Sequence record: NC_054922.1
Length of the DNA stretch: 64,000 nt
Source: Escherichia phage vB_EcoM_KAW1E185
Reading direction: 5' to 3' (one strand)
Made by a program: the position numbers and the translations under genes. Each line of letters begins with the position of its first letter. Positions within the stretch are counted from its first letter, which is position 1. The notes beneath the pieces were generated by a model. The model worked only from the letters and a program-made list of their open reading frames with translations, was not told the origin of the DNA and searched no databases. Shown here in pieces: positions 12,012 to 38,005 of this stretch.

Positions 12012-12332
12012 TTATAGCGTAATCCATTCTCTTACTGTCTGAGTTACTACACGTTCTCGAAGCTCAACCAGTTCAACGGTAGGAACTGCATAATACCAGT
12101 CAGAATGGTAAGAACCTGAGCGAGATTCATTTACAGAAACATATACGTAGTGTTTTGGGCTAAAGTAAATTACTTGACGATATTGGCATTTGCCTTGTTG
12201 AGTCCATTCTTCGGATTCAATCGGAATAAGATAGTCGGAAAAATCGAAATCATAGTTTTCTGAAAATGCATCATGGTCTTCGATGATTTCACTCAGAACT
12301 GCATCAACATCTAATTTATTTTCAGTATTCAT
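12012..12332 (-). CDS. Hypothetical acidic protein (106 aa)
   Basis: ORF track. Confidence 0.45.
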   Translation of the reverse strand: MNTENKLDVDAVLSEIIEDHDAFSENYDFDFSDYLIPIESEEWTQQGKCQYRQVIYFSPKHYVYVSVNESRSGSYHSDWYYAVPTVELVELRERVVTQTVREWITL

Positions 12333-12993: not shown

Positions 12994-13236
12994 TTATTCC
13001 TTAATTCCTAGTACTTGTTTAAAAGTCTCGTCGTAATCAAGACTTTGGCCCGTTTGTTCTTTATGTTTGTATATAATATCACTTACTTCTGATAGCATAT
13101 TTTTGTATGAACGAGTTACAGCAGATTTAAGCACGCTGTATCTATCAGGAAATTTACCATGTTCATTATAATAAGCTATTGCTAATTCACGGACTGCCTT
13201 TTCAGCAGTCTCCATATATTCTTTACGCTTGGTCAT
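12994..13236 (-). CDS. Hypothetical protein (80 aa)
   Basis: ORF track. Confidence 0.45.
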
Positions 13237-13238
13237 TT

Positions 13239-13628
13239 TTAATCCAAAATATTATTAGGCATTGGTTGAACACTCACAAGTTCTTTAAAGAACTCAGTAG
13301 AGTCAGGCAATTTAACCATTTCCGGAGCATGCTTATTAAATTTATGTTTACAATGACGGCATTTATATTCAAGCTCTGGTTTACGCCAGTTAATCAATTG
13401 AACTTGTTCAGTACCGCATTCAGGGCAATTAGGAACGTTTTTAGAAGCTCTTTCACGTCGTTCAACCATAGCCATAATAGCATCCCATGCTGGAGGTTTA
13501 AAATCTAAATCGTTGCAGCCGTGAATCTTTCCACGCATTTCCAGATCGTCTTCTTCACCAGCCATAATAATTTTAATTAGACTAGAATTACTTGAAGCTG
13601 CAATGTCTTCTAATAGACGCTTTTTCAT
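13239..13628 (-). CDS. Hypothetical zinc-ribbon protein (129 aa)
   Basis: CPECG...CRHCKH; ATG overlaps stop of upstream paralog P1. Confidence 0.5.
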
Positions 13629-14551
13629 TTCAATACCCCAATAGCATTACGTAAACCATTTGCTTTGGCGGTTAAAGCCTTAAGAACTTTAGTATGCTCT
13701 TCAATTTGTTTTTCAACTTCAATCAAACGAGCATTGAGATATTCGCGTTCTTCTTTCATAGTATCATTTCCATGATTGGATTTTGGTGTAGGTTTAAATT
13801 CACTAGGGTCCTTTAATTTAATAACAAATTTAGTTTCAAACAGTGAAAGACCATAATTCGTATTATCATCAAAGGATTTGACTACATCCATATCAGATAA
13901 TAACACGCGCAAATTATAAGCCAAAGAACTAATAGTTTCATTGTGTTTATTAGCTTCGCGTGGTTTCATATACGGAAGATTTTTATATATCTCATGCGGA
14001 GCGCAAACGATAATTGACAATTCAAATTGTCCATTCTGGGACGATGGAATGAATTTAGCCGTAACCCAGTCTTTTACATTCACATTAATAGTACGGTTAT
14101 CACCATGACAAAACAGTCTACGAGAATGCTTAAAAAGCATATTCACGTTATTATTGAATTCGTGTGAAAATTCACTAGCAAATTTTTCTTTACTATCTTT
14201 AGAAAACCATTCTTCTAAATAAGTTCTTTTCACGTCGTTAATAATATTAAATGTAACAACACTAGCATTTGATACATTAGTCTTAATGTAGCTTGGATAC
14301 ATAAATTTTTTAACATTATTAACAGCTATCACAGAAGATAATAATCGGGAACGTTTGAACCACTCGAGCAAAGAACCAAGAGAATGTGAATACGCATTTT
14401 GTGTATCTTTACAAATATGGTTTTCCCATCCAATATAGTCTAAAAAATCACGAAGAATATTATTGATTACTGCTCTGTGTCCTATCTGATAATTACGATG
14501 TTTAGTAATAAGACTGTCAAAATAATCAATATAATGTTTACGAGTTTTCAT
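13625..14551 (-). CDS. Paralog family member P1 (308 aa) with C-terminal coiled coil
   Basis: Shares internal LLEWF(K/R)..RLL motif and heptad-rich C-terminus with P2-P4. Confidence 0.6.
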   Translation of the reverse strand: MKTRKHYIDYFDSLITKHRNYQIGHRAVINNILRDFLDYIGWENHICKDTQNAYSHSLGSLLEWFKRSRLLSSVIAVNNVKKFMYPSYIKTNVSNASVVTFNIINDVKRTYLEEWFSKDSKEKFASEFSHEFNNNVNMLFKHSRRLFCHGDNRTINVNVKDWVTAKFIPSSQNGQFELSIIVCAPHEIYKNLPYMKPREANKHNETISSLAYNLRVLLSDMDVVKSFDDNTNYGLSLFETKFVIKLKDPSEFKPTPKSNHGNDTMKEEREYLNARLIEVEKQIEEHTKVLKALTAKANGLRNAIGVLK

Positions 14552-14605
14552 GTTCTTCTCACTTGGTTAATGATTTATACTCCGAGCCATCCTTGGCTTT
14601 AAATT

Positions 14606-15607
14606 TTACTTAATTAACTGTAAAGCCTGTTCTAAACGATCAAGACGATTAACAGATTCTTCCCAAATCCTTTTAGCCTGCTCATATTCTTTCTGCGCTT
14701 TATTAGAAATTTCTAGAACTTCTTTATAAGCTTTTTCTAATGCAATAACTTCTGGACGAATTTCTACCGGTTCAGGTGAATCATCAAGATTATCCATTAG
14801 TTCCTCAAGGGTAGTTTCTTCTTTAGGAGTATTCACAATTTCATCACATTTTTGTTGGTAAATTTCTTTATCAGTAGGTGAATAAGCACATTTCACTTCA
14901 CGAAGACTAACTACAATTTTATATCCTTCCCAACCGCATATATTTTTAAAAGGATATGTATGAATATTTTCTACTGTTTCCATACAAAGTAATGCGGTCT
15001 CTAATTGACGAGTTATAGTGCTAGCAATTGAGAAAAATTTATTAATATTCTTTTGGCTAGTTTCTGGTGTAAAAAATCCATAATTCACAAAAATAGCTAC
15101 TTTATTTTTATCAAGTTCATATTCTTTTATGATAATCATATCAGAAGCCAAAGGATGAATTTGACGATAATCGCCATAACATAATTTAGAAGCTGATTTT
15201 AAAATTTGCTTTTTGAAAAGTCTGAAATTACTGATCCAACGACGAGTAAAAATATTCTCAGGGTCTTCTTTATTATTAAGATGATAAGAATTAACATCAC
15301 CGAACCAATTATATCCTACTACATCTTTGGTTCGTTTAATTTCTTTCCCAAAATTACCAAGAATATCCCGATTAACCAAATATGAAAGAAGACGAGACTC
15401 TTTAAAGGTTTTCTTGATAACATCTTTATCTACACGGCTAGAAATTTTACGAATTTCATGAATAAATTTAGCAGAAGAAACAATACTTGCATCAACACTA
15501 TTGAGCCACTGATTGATAATAGAAAGAACGCTATTTTGGCCAAACATCGGTATAGCTTTATCATCAATAACTCTATTGAATGATTTGATATATTCGTTAC
15601 GAGTCAT
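14606..15607 (-). CDS. Paralog family member P2 (333 aa from MTRNEY) with C-terminal coiled coil
   Basis: RRWISNFRLFKKQILKSASKL motif; SD GAGGAG upstream of ATG 15607; ORF-track start at 15637 lies inside the promoter. Confidence 0.6.
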   Translation of the reverse strand: MTRNEYIKSFNRVIDDKAIPMFGQNSVLSIINQWLNSVDASIVSSAKFIHEIRKISSRVDKDVIKKTFKESRLLSYLVNRDILGNFGKEIKRTKDVVGYNWFGDVNSYHLNNKEDPENIFTRRWISNFRLFKKQILKSASKLCYGDYRQIHPLASDMIIIKEYELDKNKVAIFVNYGFFTPETSQKNINKFFSIASTITRQLETALLCMETVENIHTYPFKNICGWEGYKIVVSLREVKCAYSPTDKEIYQQKCDEIVNTPKEETTLEELMDNLDDSPEPVEIRPEVIALEKAYKEVLEISNKAQKEYEQAKRIWEESVNRLDRLEQALQLIK

Positions 15608-15635
15608 AATAATCTCCTCAGTAGAAAGTAAGAAC

Positions 15636-15670
15636 ATTATACCACATCCTTGTGGCGAAGTAAACTAGTT
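15636..15670 (-). promoter_or_regulatory. Early promoter upstream of P2
   Basis: Minus strand TTTACT - 17 nt - TATAAT. Confidence 0.6.
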
Positions 15671-16669
15671 TAGTGCATTTAGTGCGTTGTTCAATTTAGA
15701 ACGTTGCTTCGTGAGATTTTTTACTTTTTCTTGAGCTTTTTCTAGCATCTTTTCAGCTTCTAACACTTCATTAATTGCTTTAACGAGTTCATCATCTACT
15801 GCCTTGATAGACTTCTCAATCGCATCCGCGTGCCATTTTTCAACAGGTTTAAGACTCGGATTTTCAACAGGAAGAAAATTCACTTTATTGAATTTCCATG
15901 CATCATTATTACCTGAACTATACATCCAAAATTTAGGATCGTTTGATGAGTAATTAGTTTGGGGTTCAGGTTTTTTCTCTTGTGTAACTTCGTCCTTTCT
16001 CAAAAAATCATATTTAAATGAAACAATCATGTCAAGTTCATATGTTGTCGTATCTAATTTAAATCGTTCGAAATGCTGCGAAATCTTAGATTGAACAGCA
16101 GCAACAACATCCATATACTTAAATGCTTCTGTCAGCTGTGATTTAAGACATTCACAAATTGAAAGAGAATTTTTTGTATTAGGTTTAAAGCTAATTCGTG
16201 CAGTTCTATTATTTTCTTTTAATGGTCTTACTTCCATCTGAAGAGTATAACCATCAAATTTCAGATTCTTTAAGTTAATATCAGAGCCTTTTAATCGACT
16301 AGCAGTAGACAAAATTTGCTTTAATTGTTTACGAAATAGAGCAATAAATCTCCATTCAAGACGATAATGATTTGGATTAAAAAATCCTGTTGATAAATCA
16401 ACCTTACTCTGACCAACGCCTTGAACAAATAGAGGATTTTTATAATCAATAGTTTTACAGAAATCGGTGAGCTGCTCACGAGCAGTCATTTGTGTAATAT
16501 ATCCCGCTTTACTAAAATGACGTAACCATTCACTGCTATTCATATACTTAAAGTGAATGGAACTATTAACTCTATCAGGGTCTAAATTATTTTGGCACAA
16601 AAATGTCATAACATCACGAGTATAGCTGGCATTACGAACCATATCTTCAATTTGAGAACGAGTTTTCAT
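15665..16669 (-). CDS. Paralog family member P3 (334 aa) with C-terminal coiled coil
   Basis: RLEWRFIALFRKQLKQILSTASRL motif aligned with P2. Confidence 0.6.
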   Translation of the reverse strand: MKTRSQIEDMVRNASYTRDVMTFLCQNNLDPDRVNSSIHFKYMNSSEWLRHFSKAGYITQMTAREQLTDFCKTIDYKNPLFVQGVGQSKVDLSTGFFNPNHYRLEWRFIALFRKQLKQILSTASRLKGSDINLKNLKFDGYTLQMEVRPLKENNRTARISFKPNTKNSLSICECLKSQLTEAFKYMDVVAAVQSKISQHFERFKLDTTTYELDMIVSFKYDFLRKDEVTQEKKPEPQTNYSSNDPKFWMYSSGNNDAWKFNKVNFLPVENPSLKPVEKWHADAIEKSIKAVDDELVKAINEVLEAEKMLEKAQEKVKNLTKQRSKLNNALNALN

Positions 16670-16677
16670 GGTGTTCC

Positions 16678-17586
16678 TTAAGATTTAAGTAAATCAACAA
16701 TTTTAATTAACTTTTCACGCTCAGATTTAGCTTTACTACTCAATCCAGATAGTCTGAAAATTTCATCATCATATTGTTGAATAGAAATATTCAGCTCTTC
16801 AATTTGCTTATTAAAATAATCAATTTGCTCAGAATGTTTTTCGTTACTACGAACTGGTACAGGTTTTGTAGGCAATTTAGTTGAACTGGATTCATCCGGG
16901 CGATAAATTAAAATACAACTTGAACCAATTGGACATTTTGCACCAGATGAATATTCTAATGTTCCGGCTTCTTTTAAAACTTCAAAAGCTAAACAGAGAT
17001 GATGCCCCATATTAACATAATCTGTAGAGCGAGCTCTGATATAATAATCATCGCCCCGAATACTAAATTTAAAGCATTTAAGGTCTTCTGTATTATTGGT
17101 CTTAAAAATCATTTGTTTATCTAGACCTTTAGCTAATCGAGCGCCTAATGCTAATAATCGTCGTTGATTTTCCCACAAATCTGCGATCATTTGGTCAAAT
17201 GATAATTTCGGCATTAGTCGACCGTAAAGATCATAGCCTTTATTATAATTGCGAAGAATTTCACTTGCATTAATACGAGACAATGCTCCAATTTTATTAA
17301 GGGCTTTCATAATGCGATTAGATAAACCCATTCCAGACCCGTTTGTTCGCTGTAAATGTTTTTCTAATCCAAATCCAATATCAACTTTAAACTTATCTAA
17401 AATTTCTGCATGAACATCTCTGTCAATAACATTCAAATCCAAAGTTGGGTTAAATCTATGAAAAAATTTATCTGGCTCTCCACGACGAAGTACAGTCCAT
17501 TCATTCAATTTTTTATTAACTAAAGATTTAATTACTGCATTGACATTATTAATTACTACTGACATATTTTCCTCACTCAATTTCAA
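16678..17586 (-). CDS. Paralog family member P4 (302 aa) with C-terminal coiled coil
   Basis: DLWENQRRLLALGARLAKGL motif; heptad-rich C-terminus. Confidence 0.55.
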   Translation of the reverse strand: MKLSEENMSVVINNVNAVIKSLVNKKLNEWTVLRRGEPDKFFHRFNPTLDLNVIDRDVHAEILDKFKVDIGFGLEKHLQRTNGSGMGLSNRIMKALNKIGALSRINASEILRNYNKGYDLYGRLMPKLSFDQMIADLWENQRRLLALGARLAKGLDKQMIFKTNNTEDLKCFKFSIRGDDYYIRARSTDYVNMGHHLCLAFEVLKEAGTLEYSSGAKCPIGSSCILIYRPDESSSTKLPTKPVPVRSNEKHSEQIDYFNKQIEELNISIQQYDDEIFRLSGLSSKAKSEREKLIKIVDLLKS

Positions 17587-17980
17587 TTTTACTAAATACG
17601 CAGAATATGATGGAAAAGACTATATAAGCACCGCATACAGATTGAACTAATACCATTCCAAAGAACCAAACAATATTATCAAACAATGTCTGTTTTACGT
17701 CGAAAGGACGTAAACTTACAGTAATATTATCGCCTTTTTCTATTGATGAATACATCTCTGGGGAAATATATTCGCTAAATCTATAACCGTCTTTGAGTTC
17801 ATATACGGCAATAAACGATAAACTAGACCCCTTTCCTTGTGTTCCTGTAAAGGTATTAACTATAGTAACATCATAATCTTTATAATGCATATAATCATTA
17901 ATTGCGTAATAACCATATGCAATTACTATGCATAAACAACATATCAATAAATTCAATCTTTTAATTATCAACTGTTTCAT
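17573..17980 (-). CDS. Hypothetical membrane protein (135 aa; N- and C-terminal TM segments)
   Basis: Hydrophobic ends; 14-nt overlap with P4 start. Confidence 0.5.
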   Translation of the reverse strand: MKQLIIKRLNLLICCLCIVIAYGYYAINDYMHYKDYDVTIVNTFTGTQGKGSSLSFIAVYELKDGYRFSEYISPEMYSSIEKGDNITVSLRPFDVKQTLFDNIVWFFGMVLVQSVCGAYIVFSIIFCVFSKIEIE

Positions 17981-18035
17981 AATAATCTCAATTAAAAGGG
18001 CTTAGAACCATTATACCATCCTTGGTATAAAGCGG

Positions 18036-18563
18036 TTATGCGAGTACCGTCTTTAACCGTTCTTCAAATTTCCGAAGAGTGTTCTGGCGTTCAGCTCTTT
18101 GCTTTTTGTAAGTTTCAATACGCTCTGAAATGAGAGTGTATCGTTCATTTACTGATTCTTTCATAAAATCAGGAATTTCACGAGAAGCTTTAATCTCGTC
18201 AAATTTATCAATAACAGCTTGCTCTTCAGCAATTAAGTTATCATACATCAAAATATCTTTCTTGATGAACTCAATATCTTCTTGAGTTACACGAGATAAT
18301 TTAGATGCTTTATCCTTTTTGTACTGTTCGTTAGTATCACGAGACCAGTGTAATGTACGATTTTTATTCGTATTCTTGTAAATTTCTACAATACCAATCT
18401 CATCGATAATAACGATCCAATTCCAACGGGATTTGTAAATTTGTCCTCCATCAACCGTGATTTCACCACCGATTGAGACATCATTAAAGAACTTGCTTTG
18501 AGCTTCAGATTTAAATTTACCATCATTGTAGTTTACCAAGTTGAAAATATCTTTAGCATTCAT
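18036..18563 (-). CDS. Hypothetical protein (175 aa from MNAKDIF)
   Basis: SD GGAGGAA upstream of ATG 18563; ORF-track start 18623 lies in the promoter. Confidence 0.5.
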   Translation of the reverse strand: MNAKDIFNLVNYNDGKFKSEAQSKFFNDVSIGGEITVDGGQIYKSRWNWIVIIDEIGIVEIYKNTNKNRTLHWSRDTNEQYKKDKASKLSRVTQEDIEFIKKDILMYDNLIAEEQAVIDKFDEIKASREIPDFMKESVNERYTLISERIETYKKQRAERQNTLRKFEERLKTVLA

Positions 18564-36412: not shown

Positions 36413-36488
36413 TGGTCGAGGCAGTAGGGATCGAACCTACGACCTAGGACTTAGAAGGTCCTTGCTCTTCCTTCTGAGCTATGCCCCG
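36413..36488 (-). tRNA. tRNA-Arg (anticodon UCU)
   Basis: Hand-folded cloverleaf, 76 nt, encoded CCA; anticodon loop CUUCUAA. Confidence 0.8.
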
Positions 36489-36492
36489 TAAT

Positions 36493-36568
36493 TGGGGTGA
36501 CCGATGGGAGTCGAACCCATGACTACGAGAATCACAATCTCGAGTTCTACCAACTGAACTACGGCCAC
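36493..36568 (-). tRNA. tRNA-His (anticodon GUG), tentative
   Basis: Hand-folded cloverleaf, discriminator C, encoded CCA; anticodon loop UUGUGAU; no encoded G-1. Confidence 0.55.
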
Positions 36569-36682
36569 ATTAATACCTACTCCAACAATCAAGATGTCTT
36601 CACACGAAATTAAGAGAAGAGTGATCAGTTCAACCCCTATAATCGCGTCAAGTAGATATTAATGTGACAGTTGTCACAAATT

Positions 36683-36757
36683 TGGCGGACGTGATAGGAT
36701 TCGAACCTATAACCAATCGCTTAACAGGCGATCGCTCTGCCATTGAGCTACACATCC
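36683..36757 (-). tRNA. tRNA-Asn (anticodon GUU)
   Basis: Hand-folded cloverleaf, 75 nt; anticodon loop CUGUUAA. Confidence 0.75.
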
Positions 36758-36761
36758 AAAT

Positions 36762-36848
36762 TGGTGGGGAGTGGTGGAGTCGAACCACCCGAGTCGCAAT
36801 GACAATGAATTTACAGTCCACACCGCTACCTCTACGGGATAACTCCCC
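36762..36848 (-). tRNA. tRNA-Tyr (anticodon GUA), long variable arm
   Basis: 87 nt; anticodon loop CUGUAAA; stem has two G-U pairs. Confidence 0.6.
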
Positions 36849-36857
36849 AAATTAATT

Positions 36858-36932
36858 TGGTGGCCCTGGGTGGAATTGAACCACCATCTGGCGATTATGA
36901 GTCGCTTGCTTGAACCTTCCAGCTACAGGGCC
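36858..36932 (-). tRNA. tRNA with anticodon CAU (elongator Met or Ile2-lysidine type)
   Basis: 75 nt; anticodon loop CUCAUAA; G1-C72 pair argues against initiator. Confidence 0.7.
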
Positions 36933-36933
36933 T

Positions 36934-37009
36934 TGGTGCTGATTGACGGAATCGAACCGCCGACCTTCTCATTACAAGTGAGTTGCTCTACCTACTAAGC
37001 TAAATCAGC
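36934..37009 (-). tRNA. tRNA-Thr (anticodon UGU)
   Basis: 76 nt; anticodon loop CUUGUAA. Confidence 0.75.
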
Positions 37010-37014
37010 AAAAC

Positions 37015-37104
37015 TGGCGGAGGCGATAGGATTTGAACCTATGAGTCGCCGGAGCGACTGCCGGTTTTCAAGACCGGTGCATTAAACCACTCTGCCACGC
37101 CTCC
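37015..37104 (-). tRNA. tRNA-Ser (anticodon UGA), long variable arm
   Basis: 90 nt; anticodon loop CUUGAAA. Confidence 0.8.
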
Positions 37105-37110
37105 AAATAT

Positions 37111-37761
37111 TTATATATTGTTAATTTGATTTAGAATTCTTTTTGCTTGAGTATGACTTACGCCAATATGCTTAGCATATTTAGACAATTCGCCACGTTT
37201 AGAAAAATCATATAATTTAGAAATTTCTATTCTTCTTTTTCTTTCATCCGCAGAAACTTTTGCTTCGTTTGCTTTTGCTATTTTACGTTTAGCTTCTTGA
37301 GAATGAGTTTTACCAGCAAAGCCATTCTTCATTAATCCATTTGAAGACCATCCTTTTAATTTTCCGTTAGAATGTGCCTTTTTAACACCCAATGAAATTA
37401 ATTCGCGTTGCTGATCTGTCATAGGATAATTATTTATATGGTCCCATCCACCTTCACCTCCAAGTTTTAAATTATACACATCTGGTCTATTTAAAAACTC
37501 TTCTGTGACAATATTTTTCTCGGCTTCAAGCATAGATTCTTTATCGTCAAAATACTCTAATATTTCTTTAGAAAAATTTTCTATACCATATTTATCTTGG
37601 GCTCTTTTTAATAATTTACCAGAACCCATATATCCATCATCTAAATTTTCGGTAGAATGCACACCAATATAAATTTTATTATTAATTTTATTTGTTATTT
37701 TATAAAGATAAAAATGCATATCAGTCCCTAATAAAGAACTGAGCGTCTCACGACGAGTCAT
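37111..37761 (-). CDS. segB: GIY-YIG homing endonuclease (SegB-like) inserted within the tRNA cluster
   Basis: 216 aa; FYLYKITN...KIYIGV GIY-YIG motif; basic C-terminal DNA-binding tail; flanked by tRNA genes. Confidence 0.8.
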   Translation of the reverse strand: MTRRETLSSLLGTDMHFYLYKITNKINNKIYIGVHSTENLDDGYMGSGKLLKRAQDKYGIENFSKEILEYFDDKESMLEAEKNIVTEEFLNRPDVYNLKLGGEGGWDHINNYPMTDQQRELISLGVKKAHSNGKLKGWSSNGLMKNGFAGKTHSQEAKRKIAKANEAKVSADERKRRIEISKLYDFSKRGELSKYAKHIGVSHTQAKRILNQINNI

Positions 37762-37765
37762 AAAT

Positions 37766-37839
<74 letters not shown>

Positions 37840-37844
37840 AAATT

Positions 37845-37931
37845 TGGTGCGAGAAGTGGGACTCGAACCCACAAGGAAATCATTCCGCAGCATTTTAAGT
37901 GCTGTGCCTTTACCAATTTGACCATTCTCGC
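37845..37931 (-). tRNA. tRNA-Leu (anticodon UAA), long variable arm
   Basis: 87 nt; anticodon loop CUUAAAA. Confidence 0.8.
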
Positions 37932-38005
37932 GCTGGGAATAAAGGACTCGAACCTTTGCATCTAGCAGTCAAAGTGCTATGCCTTACCAACTTGGCTAAT
38001 TCCCA
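37932..38005 (-). tRNA. tRNA-Gln (anticodon UUG), CCA not fully encoded
   Basis: Anticodon loop CUUUGAC; abuts tRNA-Leu. Confidence 0.75.

Follow-up and report, generated by a model that had tools for sequence, protein, structure and literature searches.

Four tandem nrdC.3–nrdC.6 genes of a T4-like Escherichia phage are diverged copies of one ancestral gene with a putative role in counter-defence

The window considered here is a stretch of 64,000 nucleotides from Escherichia phage vB_EcoM_KAW1E185 (NC_054922.1), and its subject is an array of four consecutive genes, P1 to P4, that are orthologous to nrdC.3 to nrdC.6 of phage T4. The 4.4-kb array stretch matches 589 phage records, nearly all of them Tequatrovirus, with Escherichia phage 303Ecol101PP as the best (97.4%), and the source phage is a Tequatrovirus. 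An earlier sequence-only reading had described four tandem open reading frames (ORFs) here, and all four are present on the minus strand where it placed them. Ortholog names were assigned by alignment to T4 (NC_000866); every ortholog from nrdC.3 to nrdC.8 is a minus-strand gene situated between gene 49/nrdC on one side and nrdC.10/nrdC.11 on the other. The four genes are as follows.

13625..14551, minus strand: P1, ortholog of T4 nrdC.3, 308 amino acids, subfamily A; 92% identity to T4 NrdC.3; phrog_1435, E=3e-100
14606..15607, minus strand: P2, ortholog of T4 nrdC.4, 333 amino acids, subfamily B; 97% identity to T4 NrdC.4; phrog_1435, E=6e-168
15665..16669, minus strand: P3, ortholog of T4 nrdC.5, 334 amino acids, subfamily C, which is Pfam DUF7235
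16678..17565, minus strand: P4, ortholog of T4 nrdC.6, 295 amino acids, subfamily D (PF26899 on homologs); phrog_2257, E=3e-153

P3 matches PF23882 (DUF7235) at 391 bits against a gathering cut-off of 30, over model positions 1–307 of 307, and also matches phrog_2351. It is 90% identical to T4 NrdC.5 over its full length and sits between the nrdC.4 and nrdC.6 orthologs, which places the two in one ortholog group. P1 scored 10.6 bits, below the DUF7235 threshold and confined to its coiled-coil end; that family was not matched by P2 or P4, and none of the four matched NCBIfam. Subfamilies A and B are already joined in phrog_1435, which both P1 and P2 match as a hidden Markov model over the full length. 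A GAGGAG Shine-Dalgarno sequence stands ahead of the P2 start at ATG 15607. The P4 start is most likely ATG 17565 (MSVVINN...) rather than TTG 17586, because a GAGG Shine-Dalgarno sequence precedes the ATG, overlapping the TGA stop of nrdC.7, and because nearly all database homologs are 295–296 amino acids long. The overlap between P4 and the adjacent membrane-protein gene in the sequence-only reading was an artefact of the TTG start; with the ATG, the two genes show stop/Shine-Dalgarno coupling instead.

Many GenBank records call nrdC.3–nrdC.10 'thioredoxin', and one carries 'Mur ligase domain-containing protein' or 'tail sheath protein'. These genes match no thioredoxin model in Pfam or NCBIfam, the pairing of a thioredoxin fold model with a CxxC motif was not found in them, and the other two labels are backed by no model match. 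The 'thioredoxin' label is spill-over from the neighbouring locus name nrdC, and we flag this widespread annotation as wrong.

P1 to P4 are true, strongly diverged tandem copies of one ancestral gene, with homology far above chance. The same region was collected from T4, seven other T4-like genera and IMG/VR loci, giving subfamily profiles A (P1), B (P2), C (P3) and D (P4). A separate hub profile, G, was built from 11 sequences found in T4-like phages that infect other hosts: four came from phages of Citrobacter, Klebsiella, Enterobacter and Yersinia, and seven from a database-wide search. It holds no member of the four window subfamilies; profile E is an earlier, smaller version of it. In hhalign comparisons with this hub, A, B, C and D reached 98.2, 97.8, 99.2 and 98.5% (E from 6e-14 to 2e-19, over 203–272 columns). 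When all 52 window ORFs of at least 150 amino acids were compared with the hub, P1 to P4 as single sequences reached 95.8–98.6% (P1 96.7%), whereas the best of the other 48 reached 3.3%. The globular regions of P1 to P4 matched these relatives from other genera with E values of 2.8e-8, 4.7e-9, 2.2e-23 and 7.4e-11, and when the 426 ORFs of 100 amino acids or more from the window and 20 loci were searched with G by hmmsearch, family members alone were returned. Between the subfamilies themselves, A and B aligned at 98.5% over 211 columns, making P2 the closest paralog of P1, and B and C at 88.6%.

Such divergence might be taken to mean that the four proteins are not homologous, and that their likeness amounts to low-complexity coiled coil and chance motifs. 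Five of the six BLASTP pairs among P1–P4 were indeed not significant (P1–P2 gave E=0.003), nor were the direct D–A, D–B and D–C profile comparisons. Against this, each protein matches the independent hub, and the links persist once the coiled coil is trimmed away (A–B 97.8%, A–E 90.2%, D–E 94.5%), so that the homology signal lies in the globular part, beyond the terminal helix, as the sequence-only reading had supposed. The predicted topologies of P3 and P4 also agree, and their models share structural matches. The product of nrdC.8, a neighbour that likewise ends in a coiled coil, scored at most 2.9% against the hub and was rejected as a fifth family member. Put to the test by the hub profile, the trimming and the nrdC.8 control, non-homology was rejected, and we regard it as hardly tenable.

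An alignment of 30 diverse members contains six blocks common to the family, in which no column is invariant. Block 1 is an N-terminal M.TR.. and block 4 is AL..M..V; block 5, P..KPVE..H, stands ahead of the terminal helix, and block 6 is the terminal (Q/E)R.KL..A(L/I)..LK. Block 2 (K.F+.S..LS...A...L.NF) and block 3, the helix-pair motif (F...N...LLA.GARL..GD.R), occur in all four proteins. The mid-protein motif proposed from the sequence alone is therefore real in each of them, although the string given for P1, LLEWFKRSRLL, belongs to block 2. The helix-pair copies, placed by the aligned columns, are these.

14114..14179, minus strand: P1 copy, residues 125–146, ASEFSHEFNNNVNMLFKHSRRL
15182..15244, minus strand: P2 copy, RRWISNFRLFKKQILKSASKL
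16292..16357, minus strand: P3 copy, EWRFIALFRKQLKQILSTASRL
17128..17196, minus strand: P4 copy, DQMIADLWENQRRLLALGARLAK

Each protein ends, as had been noticed, in a heptad-rich helix. These helices are 46–58 residues long and keep one unbroken heptad register with 85–88% hydrophobic residues at the a and d positions (shuffle p<=0.002), so that a continuous register, hydrophobic a/d positions and at least four heptads are found in all four.

13628..13765, minus strand: P1 heptad helix, 85% hydrophobic a/d, shuffle p=0.001
14609..14758, minus strand: P2 heptad helix, 86% hydrophobic a/d, shuffle p=0.002
15668..15844, minus strand: P3 heptad helix (model residues 276–333), 88% hydrophobic a/d, p<0.001; a single helix with a predicted local distance difference test score (pLDDT) of about 90
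16681..16833, minus strand: P4 heptad helix (model residues 245–294), 86% hydrophobic a/d, p<0.001; a single helix in the model

A profile search of the PDB gave weak, non-significant matches only (best E=0.002, most 0.01–0.7), nearly all of them coiled coils falling on this terminal helix. In subfamily C the linker ahead of the helix (about residues 224–275 of P3, 15845–16000) is long and predicted to be disordered, and contains the aromatic motif (D/N).W K (F/I/V) N. The W-K-[FIV]-N element, which may serve for binding as a short motif, is kept across genera in subfamily C and is absent from A, B and D.

P3 and P4 were modelled with AlphaFold2 on superfamily alignments that had members in common (pLDDT 79 and 81.7). 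The elements follow one another in the same way in the two models: several N-terminal helices ending in the helix pair with the GARL motif, then a beta-hairpin, a helix and a second beta-hairpin, followed by a low-confidence linker (45 versus 15 residues) and one long helix (58 versus 50 residues). The order of helical N-domain, beta-beta-alpha-beta-beta domain, disordered linker and long terminal helix is thus present in both models, and the shared sequence blocks suggest that P1 and P2 would follow it too. In BFVD the P3 model had five significant matches, uncharacterised proteins of about 300–375 amino acids from T4-like phages (Erwinia Cronus, Klebsiella Mineola, Pectobacterium PM2, Acinetobacter Acj61 and Citrobacter Merlin). 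The P4 model had 11, which included all five of these, its own subfamily, and other proteins from phages of Acinetobacter, Enterobacter and Yersinia. BFVD returned no P2-subfamily protein for either model and the P1 subfamily only as a weak, non-significant match to the P4 model, so that these searches yielded no structure-based link to P1 or P2.

The P3 model also drew weak Foldseek matches in BFVD to tail completion proteins (E about 1e-2), which raises the question of whether the four are virion or assembly proteins akin to tail terminator or completion proteins. Identity in these matches is 3–13% with no sequence-profile match behind it, no structural or assembly family claims P1 to P4, and copy number varies, unlike that of essential neck proteins. 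The genes lie in the minus-strand nrdC early region; the parts of the T4 study that treat nrdC.5 term it an early gene and report that mutants without it still grow on K-12 (Srikant, Guegler, Laub, eLife 2022, PMC9391042). A role in the virion is very improbable on this evidence.

The family is small and confined to T4-like phages. When 1.84 billion representative proteins were searched with a profile, 30 matched at E<=1e-3, among them one repeat-protein artefact and several fragments, and every family member traceable to an organism belongs to a T4-like phage. Searches with P3 or with an 18-sequence superfamily alignment, which were limited by the word index, returned almost only close Tequatrovirus NrdC.5 orthologs, and a locus search with the subfamily C alignment gave 12 loci. 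The sequence-only reading had called for copy numbers to be compared across T4-like phages, and they differ by genus: T4-like phages of Klebsiella, Enterobacter and Citrobacter have a single copy, as opposed to three or four in the coliphage genera.

Tequatrovirus: four copies, D-C-B-A in transcription order
Gaprivervirus and Dhakavirus: three copies, D-C-B
Mosigvirus: three copies, D-C-A
Moon, Klebsiella Roth34 and Enterobacter KMB19: one copy of the hub type, in the same position
Yersinia fHe-Yen9-01: two copies, one of the hub type and a very distant one that lies across nrdC.10 from the usual position

The distant fHe-Yen9-01 copy is gp111 (313 amino acids, L008:7943-8884), which matches G.hmm at E=1e-6 and the P4 model in Foldseek at E=1.4e-3. 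Directly upstream of the family member in the Klebsiella, Enterobacter and Yersinia T4-like phages lies an unrelated but conserved family of proteins of about 260 amino acids (L006:12286-13074 in Roth34, L007:12683-13456 in KMB19 and L008:12630-13421 in fHe-Yen9-01); as relatives of P1–P4 these were rejected, with a profile score below 1%.

Copies are lost as well as gained. One protein of 299 amino acids from a 167-kb contig (P0057) is an out-of-register P3::P1 fusion, in which about residues 145–260 of P3 are joined to about residues 137–308 of P1 and P2 is gone, indicating that the array loses members by illegitimate recombination. Some records retain only a quarter of P2 or P4. In the T4 reference, NrdC.6 (NC_000866, L001:12067-12894) has 275 amino acids and ends ...QIEELIFLFNNMMMKFSDYLD, a one-base frameshift of the window's ...QIEELNISIQQYDDEIFRLSGL... 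that removes the whole C-terminal helix; this truncation is either natural or a sequencing error.

The evolution of P1 to P3 is fast and mosaic. Ratios of nonsynonymous to synonymous substitution rates (dN/dS) among orthologs were 0.17–0.36 for P1, 0.15–0.24 for P2, 0.17–0.19 for P3 and 0.01–0.05 for P4, as compared with 0–0.08 for gene 49, nrdC, nrdC.10 and nrdC.11, and the raised ratios are 5–10 times those of neighbouring genes. Within P3, residues 1–60 gave about 0.3–0.5 and the core (61–180) 0.01–0.06, and column entropy over 51 orthologs follows the same pattern, with a variable N-terminus. The N-terminal divergence noticed in the sequence is accordingly real, the first 60 or so residues being the most diverged. 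Diversifying pressure, which had been proposed to explain it, fares less well: ratios are raised in P1–P3, to about 0.4 in P3 residues 1–60, but never exceed 1 in regions with useful counts, and P4 shows no rise at all. Gene-wide positive selection is not supported by dN/dS. P4 is both the most diverged and the most conserved of the four copies.

Two P3 orthologs from IMG/VR (L009:6001-7020 and L010:6001-7023) differ only in residues 1–60, by 15 nonsynonymous and 8 synonymous changes; being identical outside that segment, they point to a recombination breakpoint inside the gene, with the N-terminal module exchanged. P1 exists within Tequatrovirus as two alleles of 61% identity, about 138 records sharing 80% identity or more with the allele of the window, and 294 records, RB3, L010 and L011 being of that type, lying at 60–80%. 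Not one of 650 records holds a P3 ortholog that is at least 99% identical, as against 481 records for nrdC.10.

Around and within the array lie several further features.

17573..17980, minus strand: nrdC.7, gene for a membrane protein with two transmembrane segments (phrog_2547), a neighbour outside the paralog family
18036-18563, minus strand: nrdC.8, 175 amino acids, named by alignment to T4
15636..15664, minus strand: match to a sigma-70/T4-early-like promoter (GTTTACT, 17-nucleotide spacer, TGgTATAAT), between P3 and P2

Both hydrophobic segments ascribed to the nrdC.7 product are there, as hydropathy peaks at residues 1–29 and 102–134. The idea that this gene leads the array holds for Tequatrovirus only, where it adjoins the array; it is relocated in Mosigvirus and Karamvirus, is absent from the Dhakavirus and Gaprivervirus loci, and is not a conserved partner. 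Immediately upstream of the array, nrdC.8 is conserved in each of the four coliphage genera; the helix that closes its product is charged and has a weaker heptad pattern (69% a/d, p=0.016). At the other end, nrdC.2 (13239-13628) encodes 129 amino acids versus 104 in T4, with 79% identity to the T4 protein, and has a zinc-ribbon match (CPECG...CRHC); 4 nucleotides are shared between its start and the stop of P1. The site between P3 and P2 scores 10/12 in a consensus scan, with a TG extension, and may function as a promoter to judge from its letters. The scan for promoters and terminators was near background (42 found versus 35 expected), and this site alone was noteworthy. Elsewhere in the window 10 tRNA genes (Arg, His, Asn, Tyr, Met, Thr, Ser, Gly, Leu and Gln) are clustered at 36413-38005, a set that probably differs from that of the T4 reference; it includes tRNA-Tyr, the reported target of Septu.

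The array had been regarded as being of unknown function. Its genes have long been annotated as nrdC.3–nrdC.6, and T4 nrdC.5, the ortholog of P3, counters the defence system Dsr1. As described in the sections of the T4 paper devoted to this gene, a T4 deletion mutant failed to plate on ECOR17 or on MG1655 carrying ECOR17 dsr1, and plasmid-borne T4 nrdC.5 restored its plating on dsr1 cells (PMC9391042). Dsr1 is a SIR2 NADase, and a 2026 preprint (PMC12803255) reports that the major capsid protein triggers its tetratricopeptide repeat (TPR) sensor. By sequence and position, P3 is the counterpart of NrdC.5, the factor that lets T4 grow on Dsr1 cells. Two further T4 proteins from this region have been assigned similar roles, gp49.2 countering OLD (PMC13096335) and nrdC.1 countering Septu (bioRxiv 10.1101/2025.11.20.689424). 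Their orthologs are present in the window at 12012-12332 and 12994-13236, and the stretch from 12 to 17.6 kb looks like an anti-defence island. In the literature searched, no paper treats nrdC.3–6 as paralogs or gives a role to nrdC.3, nrdC.4 or nrdC.6.

Since P1 to P4 are paralogous and P3 is the ortholog of the anti-Dsr1 protein, the array can be read as an expanding anti-immunity family. Its behaviour resembles that of an arms race, because copy number varies (4, 3, 1), deletions and fusions occur, P1 has distinct alleles, dN/dS is raised, and the P3 N-terminus is swapped. No enzyme family in Pfam, NCBIfam or the PDB matches P1 to P4, so that no sign of enzymatic counter-defence was found there; together with the absence of any invariant column, this suggests a binder rather than an enzyme. 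The isoelectric points of P1 to P4 (9.3, 7.6, 9.3 and 9.2) led us to reject an acidic, Ocr-like DNA mimic. We therefore favour, with moderate confidence, the interpretation that P1 to P4 are tandem paralogs of the T4-like NrdC.3–6 (NrdC.5-like) family and are most likely early, non-enzymatic cytoplasmic binders that neutralise host immune proteins.

As we read it, the build shared by the family combines a conserved core of about 120 residues, made up of the helix pair with the F..N...LLA.GARL..GD.R motif and the beta-beta-alpha-beta-beta domain, with a fast-evolving N-terminal segment of about 60 residues that recombination exchanges between phages, a disordered linker whose length varies, and an amphipathic heptad helix of 50–58 residues ending in (Q/E)R.KL..A(L/I)..LK. 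The conserved core and coiled coil would provide a scaffold and oligomerisation, and hence avidity, and the variable N-terminus and linker would set target specificity. P1, P2 and P4 might then be directed at other defence systems, and tandem duplication in E. coli and Shigella phages, from one copy to three or four, may have been driven by the defence repertoire of their hosts.

Several points weigh against this interpretation. Functional evidence exists for one of the four proteins only, P3, and reaches it through orthology; direct binding of NrdC.5 to Dsr1 would be a working model borrowed from the phage inhibitor DSAD1. The terminal helix is only a putative oligomeriser. The link of P4 to the other three is transitive, by way of the hub family and the predicted structures, and the P3 and P4 models are not independent, given the members common to their alignments. 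Positive selection on the array is not demonstrated, dN/dS being below 1, and the strong purification of P4 is atypical for an arms-race gene, so that its role may be a conserved and perhaps a different one.

A more specific version has the paralogs acting as early decoys, in which the core mimics a phage structural protein and the coiled coil oligomerises, so that Dsr1/Avs-like TPR sensors are occupied without being activated. The idea draws on the weak likeness of the P3 model to tail terminator and completion folds, and sensors of this type reportedly envelop capsid, connector and tail-terminator folds. We think this version rather unlikely, and give no greater credence to its extension, in which different paralogs block different sensors and the growth from one to four copies tracks the E. 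coli defence repertoire.

It is also conceivable that the four proteins form one hetero-oligomeric complex through their similar C-terminal helices, with a single joint function, anti-Dsr1 or other. The (Q/E)R.KL..A..LK ending is kept across all subfamilies, the genes share one orientation and are closely spaced, the stop of one being coupled to the start of the next, and the order D-C-B/A is kept across genera, all of which would suit subunits of one assembly. A complex of this kind is harder to reconcile with the many T4-like phages that have a single copy, with Dhakavirus lacking subfamily A and Mosigvirus lacking B, with natural phages lacking P2, or with the T4 reference NrdC.6 lacking the helix. 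Plasmid-borne nrdC.5 was sufficient alone, although the passages of the paper that describe the mutant do not say which paralogs it had kept (PMC9391042). We consider a joint complex unlikely, while placing it at the head of our ranking of rivals, ahead of host takeover, a structural role and chance similarity in that order.

Many T4 early proteins modify RNA polymerase. Since the array genes sit in the early-gene region, P1 to P4 might be host-takeover factors, for example docking on RNA polymerase or another host machine, with the anti-Dsr1 effect an indirect one. Tail-terminator folds, however, score equally well in the structure matches, and genes that are dispensable, variable in copy number and limited to few genera fit accessory host-range functions better, which leaves a takeover role improbable.

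If the favoured interpretation of P1 to P4 as binders of host immune proteins is right, the family adds to a short list, NrdC.5 being one of few known phage factors against SIR2-type NAD+-depleting defence, and it supplies three candidate counter-defence genes, nrdC.3, nrdC.4 and nrdC.6, in the best-studied phage. About 4 kb of T4 'dark matter' is turned into a testable family hypothesis, for which the arrangement of scaffold, swappable N-terminal module and coiled coil offers a rational basis for domain-swap and truncation work. The array would also show how, in nature, a family of anti-defence genes has expanded from a single copy to four among the phages of one host group.

Among known systems the closest is T4 NrdC.5 itself (DUF7235), which P3 resembles in position, length class and sequence (90% identity); P1, P2 and P4 share the predicted fold and architecture but fall below the DUF7235 threshold, in separate PHROG and Pfam families. 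The folds that the models recall, the tail terminator/completion fold (lambda gpU-like) and the RNA polymerase alpha N-terminal (RBP11-like) fold, are matched at low identity and partial coverage, with two unrelated classes scoring alike and no sequence signal, and the context of the array is early and accessory; the likeness to either is resemblance only. DSAD1, the inhibitor of DSR2 from an SPbeta-like phage, acts like NrdC.5 against a defence-associated sirtuin NADase, and is described as a stoichiometric binder that blocks DSR2 sensing (PMC10973363, PMC10981675). It belongs to another phage group and its target senses the tail tube rather than the major capsid protein sensed by Dsr1. The gp49.2 and NrdC.1 proteins come, like the array, from the hyperplastic stretch of early genes on the minus strand that separates gene 49 from nrdC.11, and are likewise dispensable with a host-specific benefit, but are 80–106 amino acids long, unrelated in sequence, single-copy and without a coiled coil. 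Taken with these comparisons, the array is best filed among putative new phage accessory counter-defence proteins rather than as a new kind of system.

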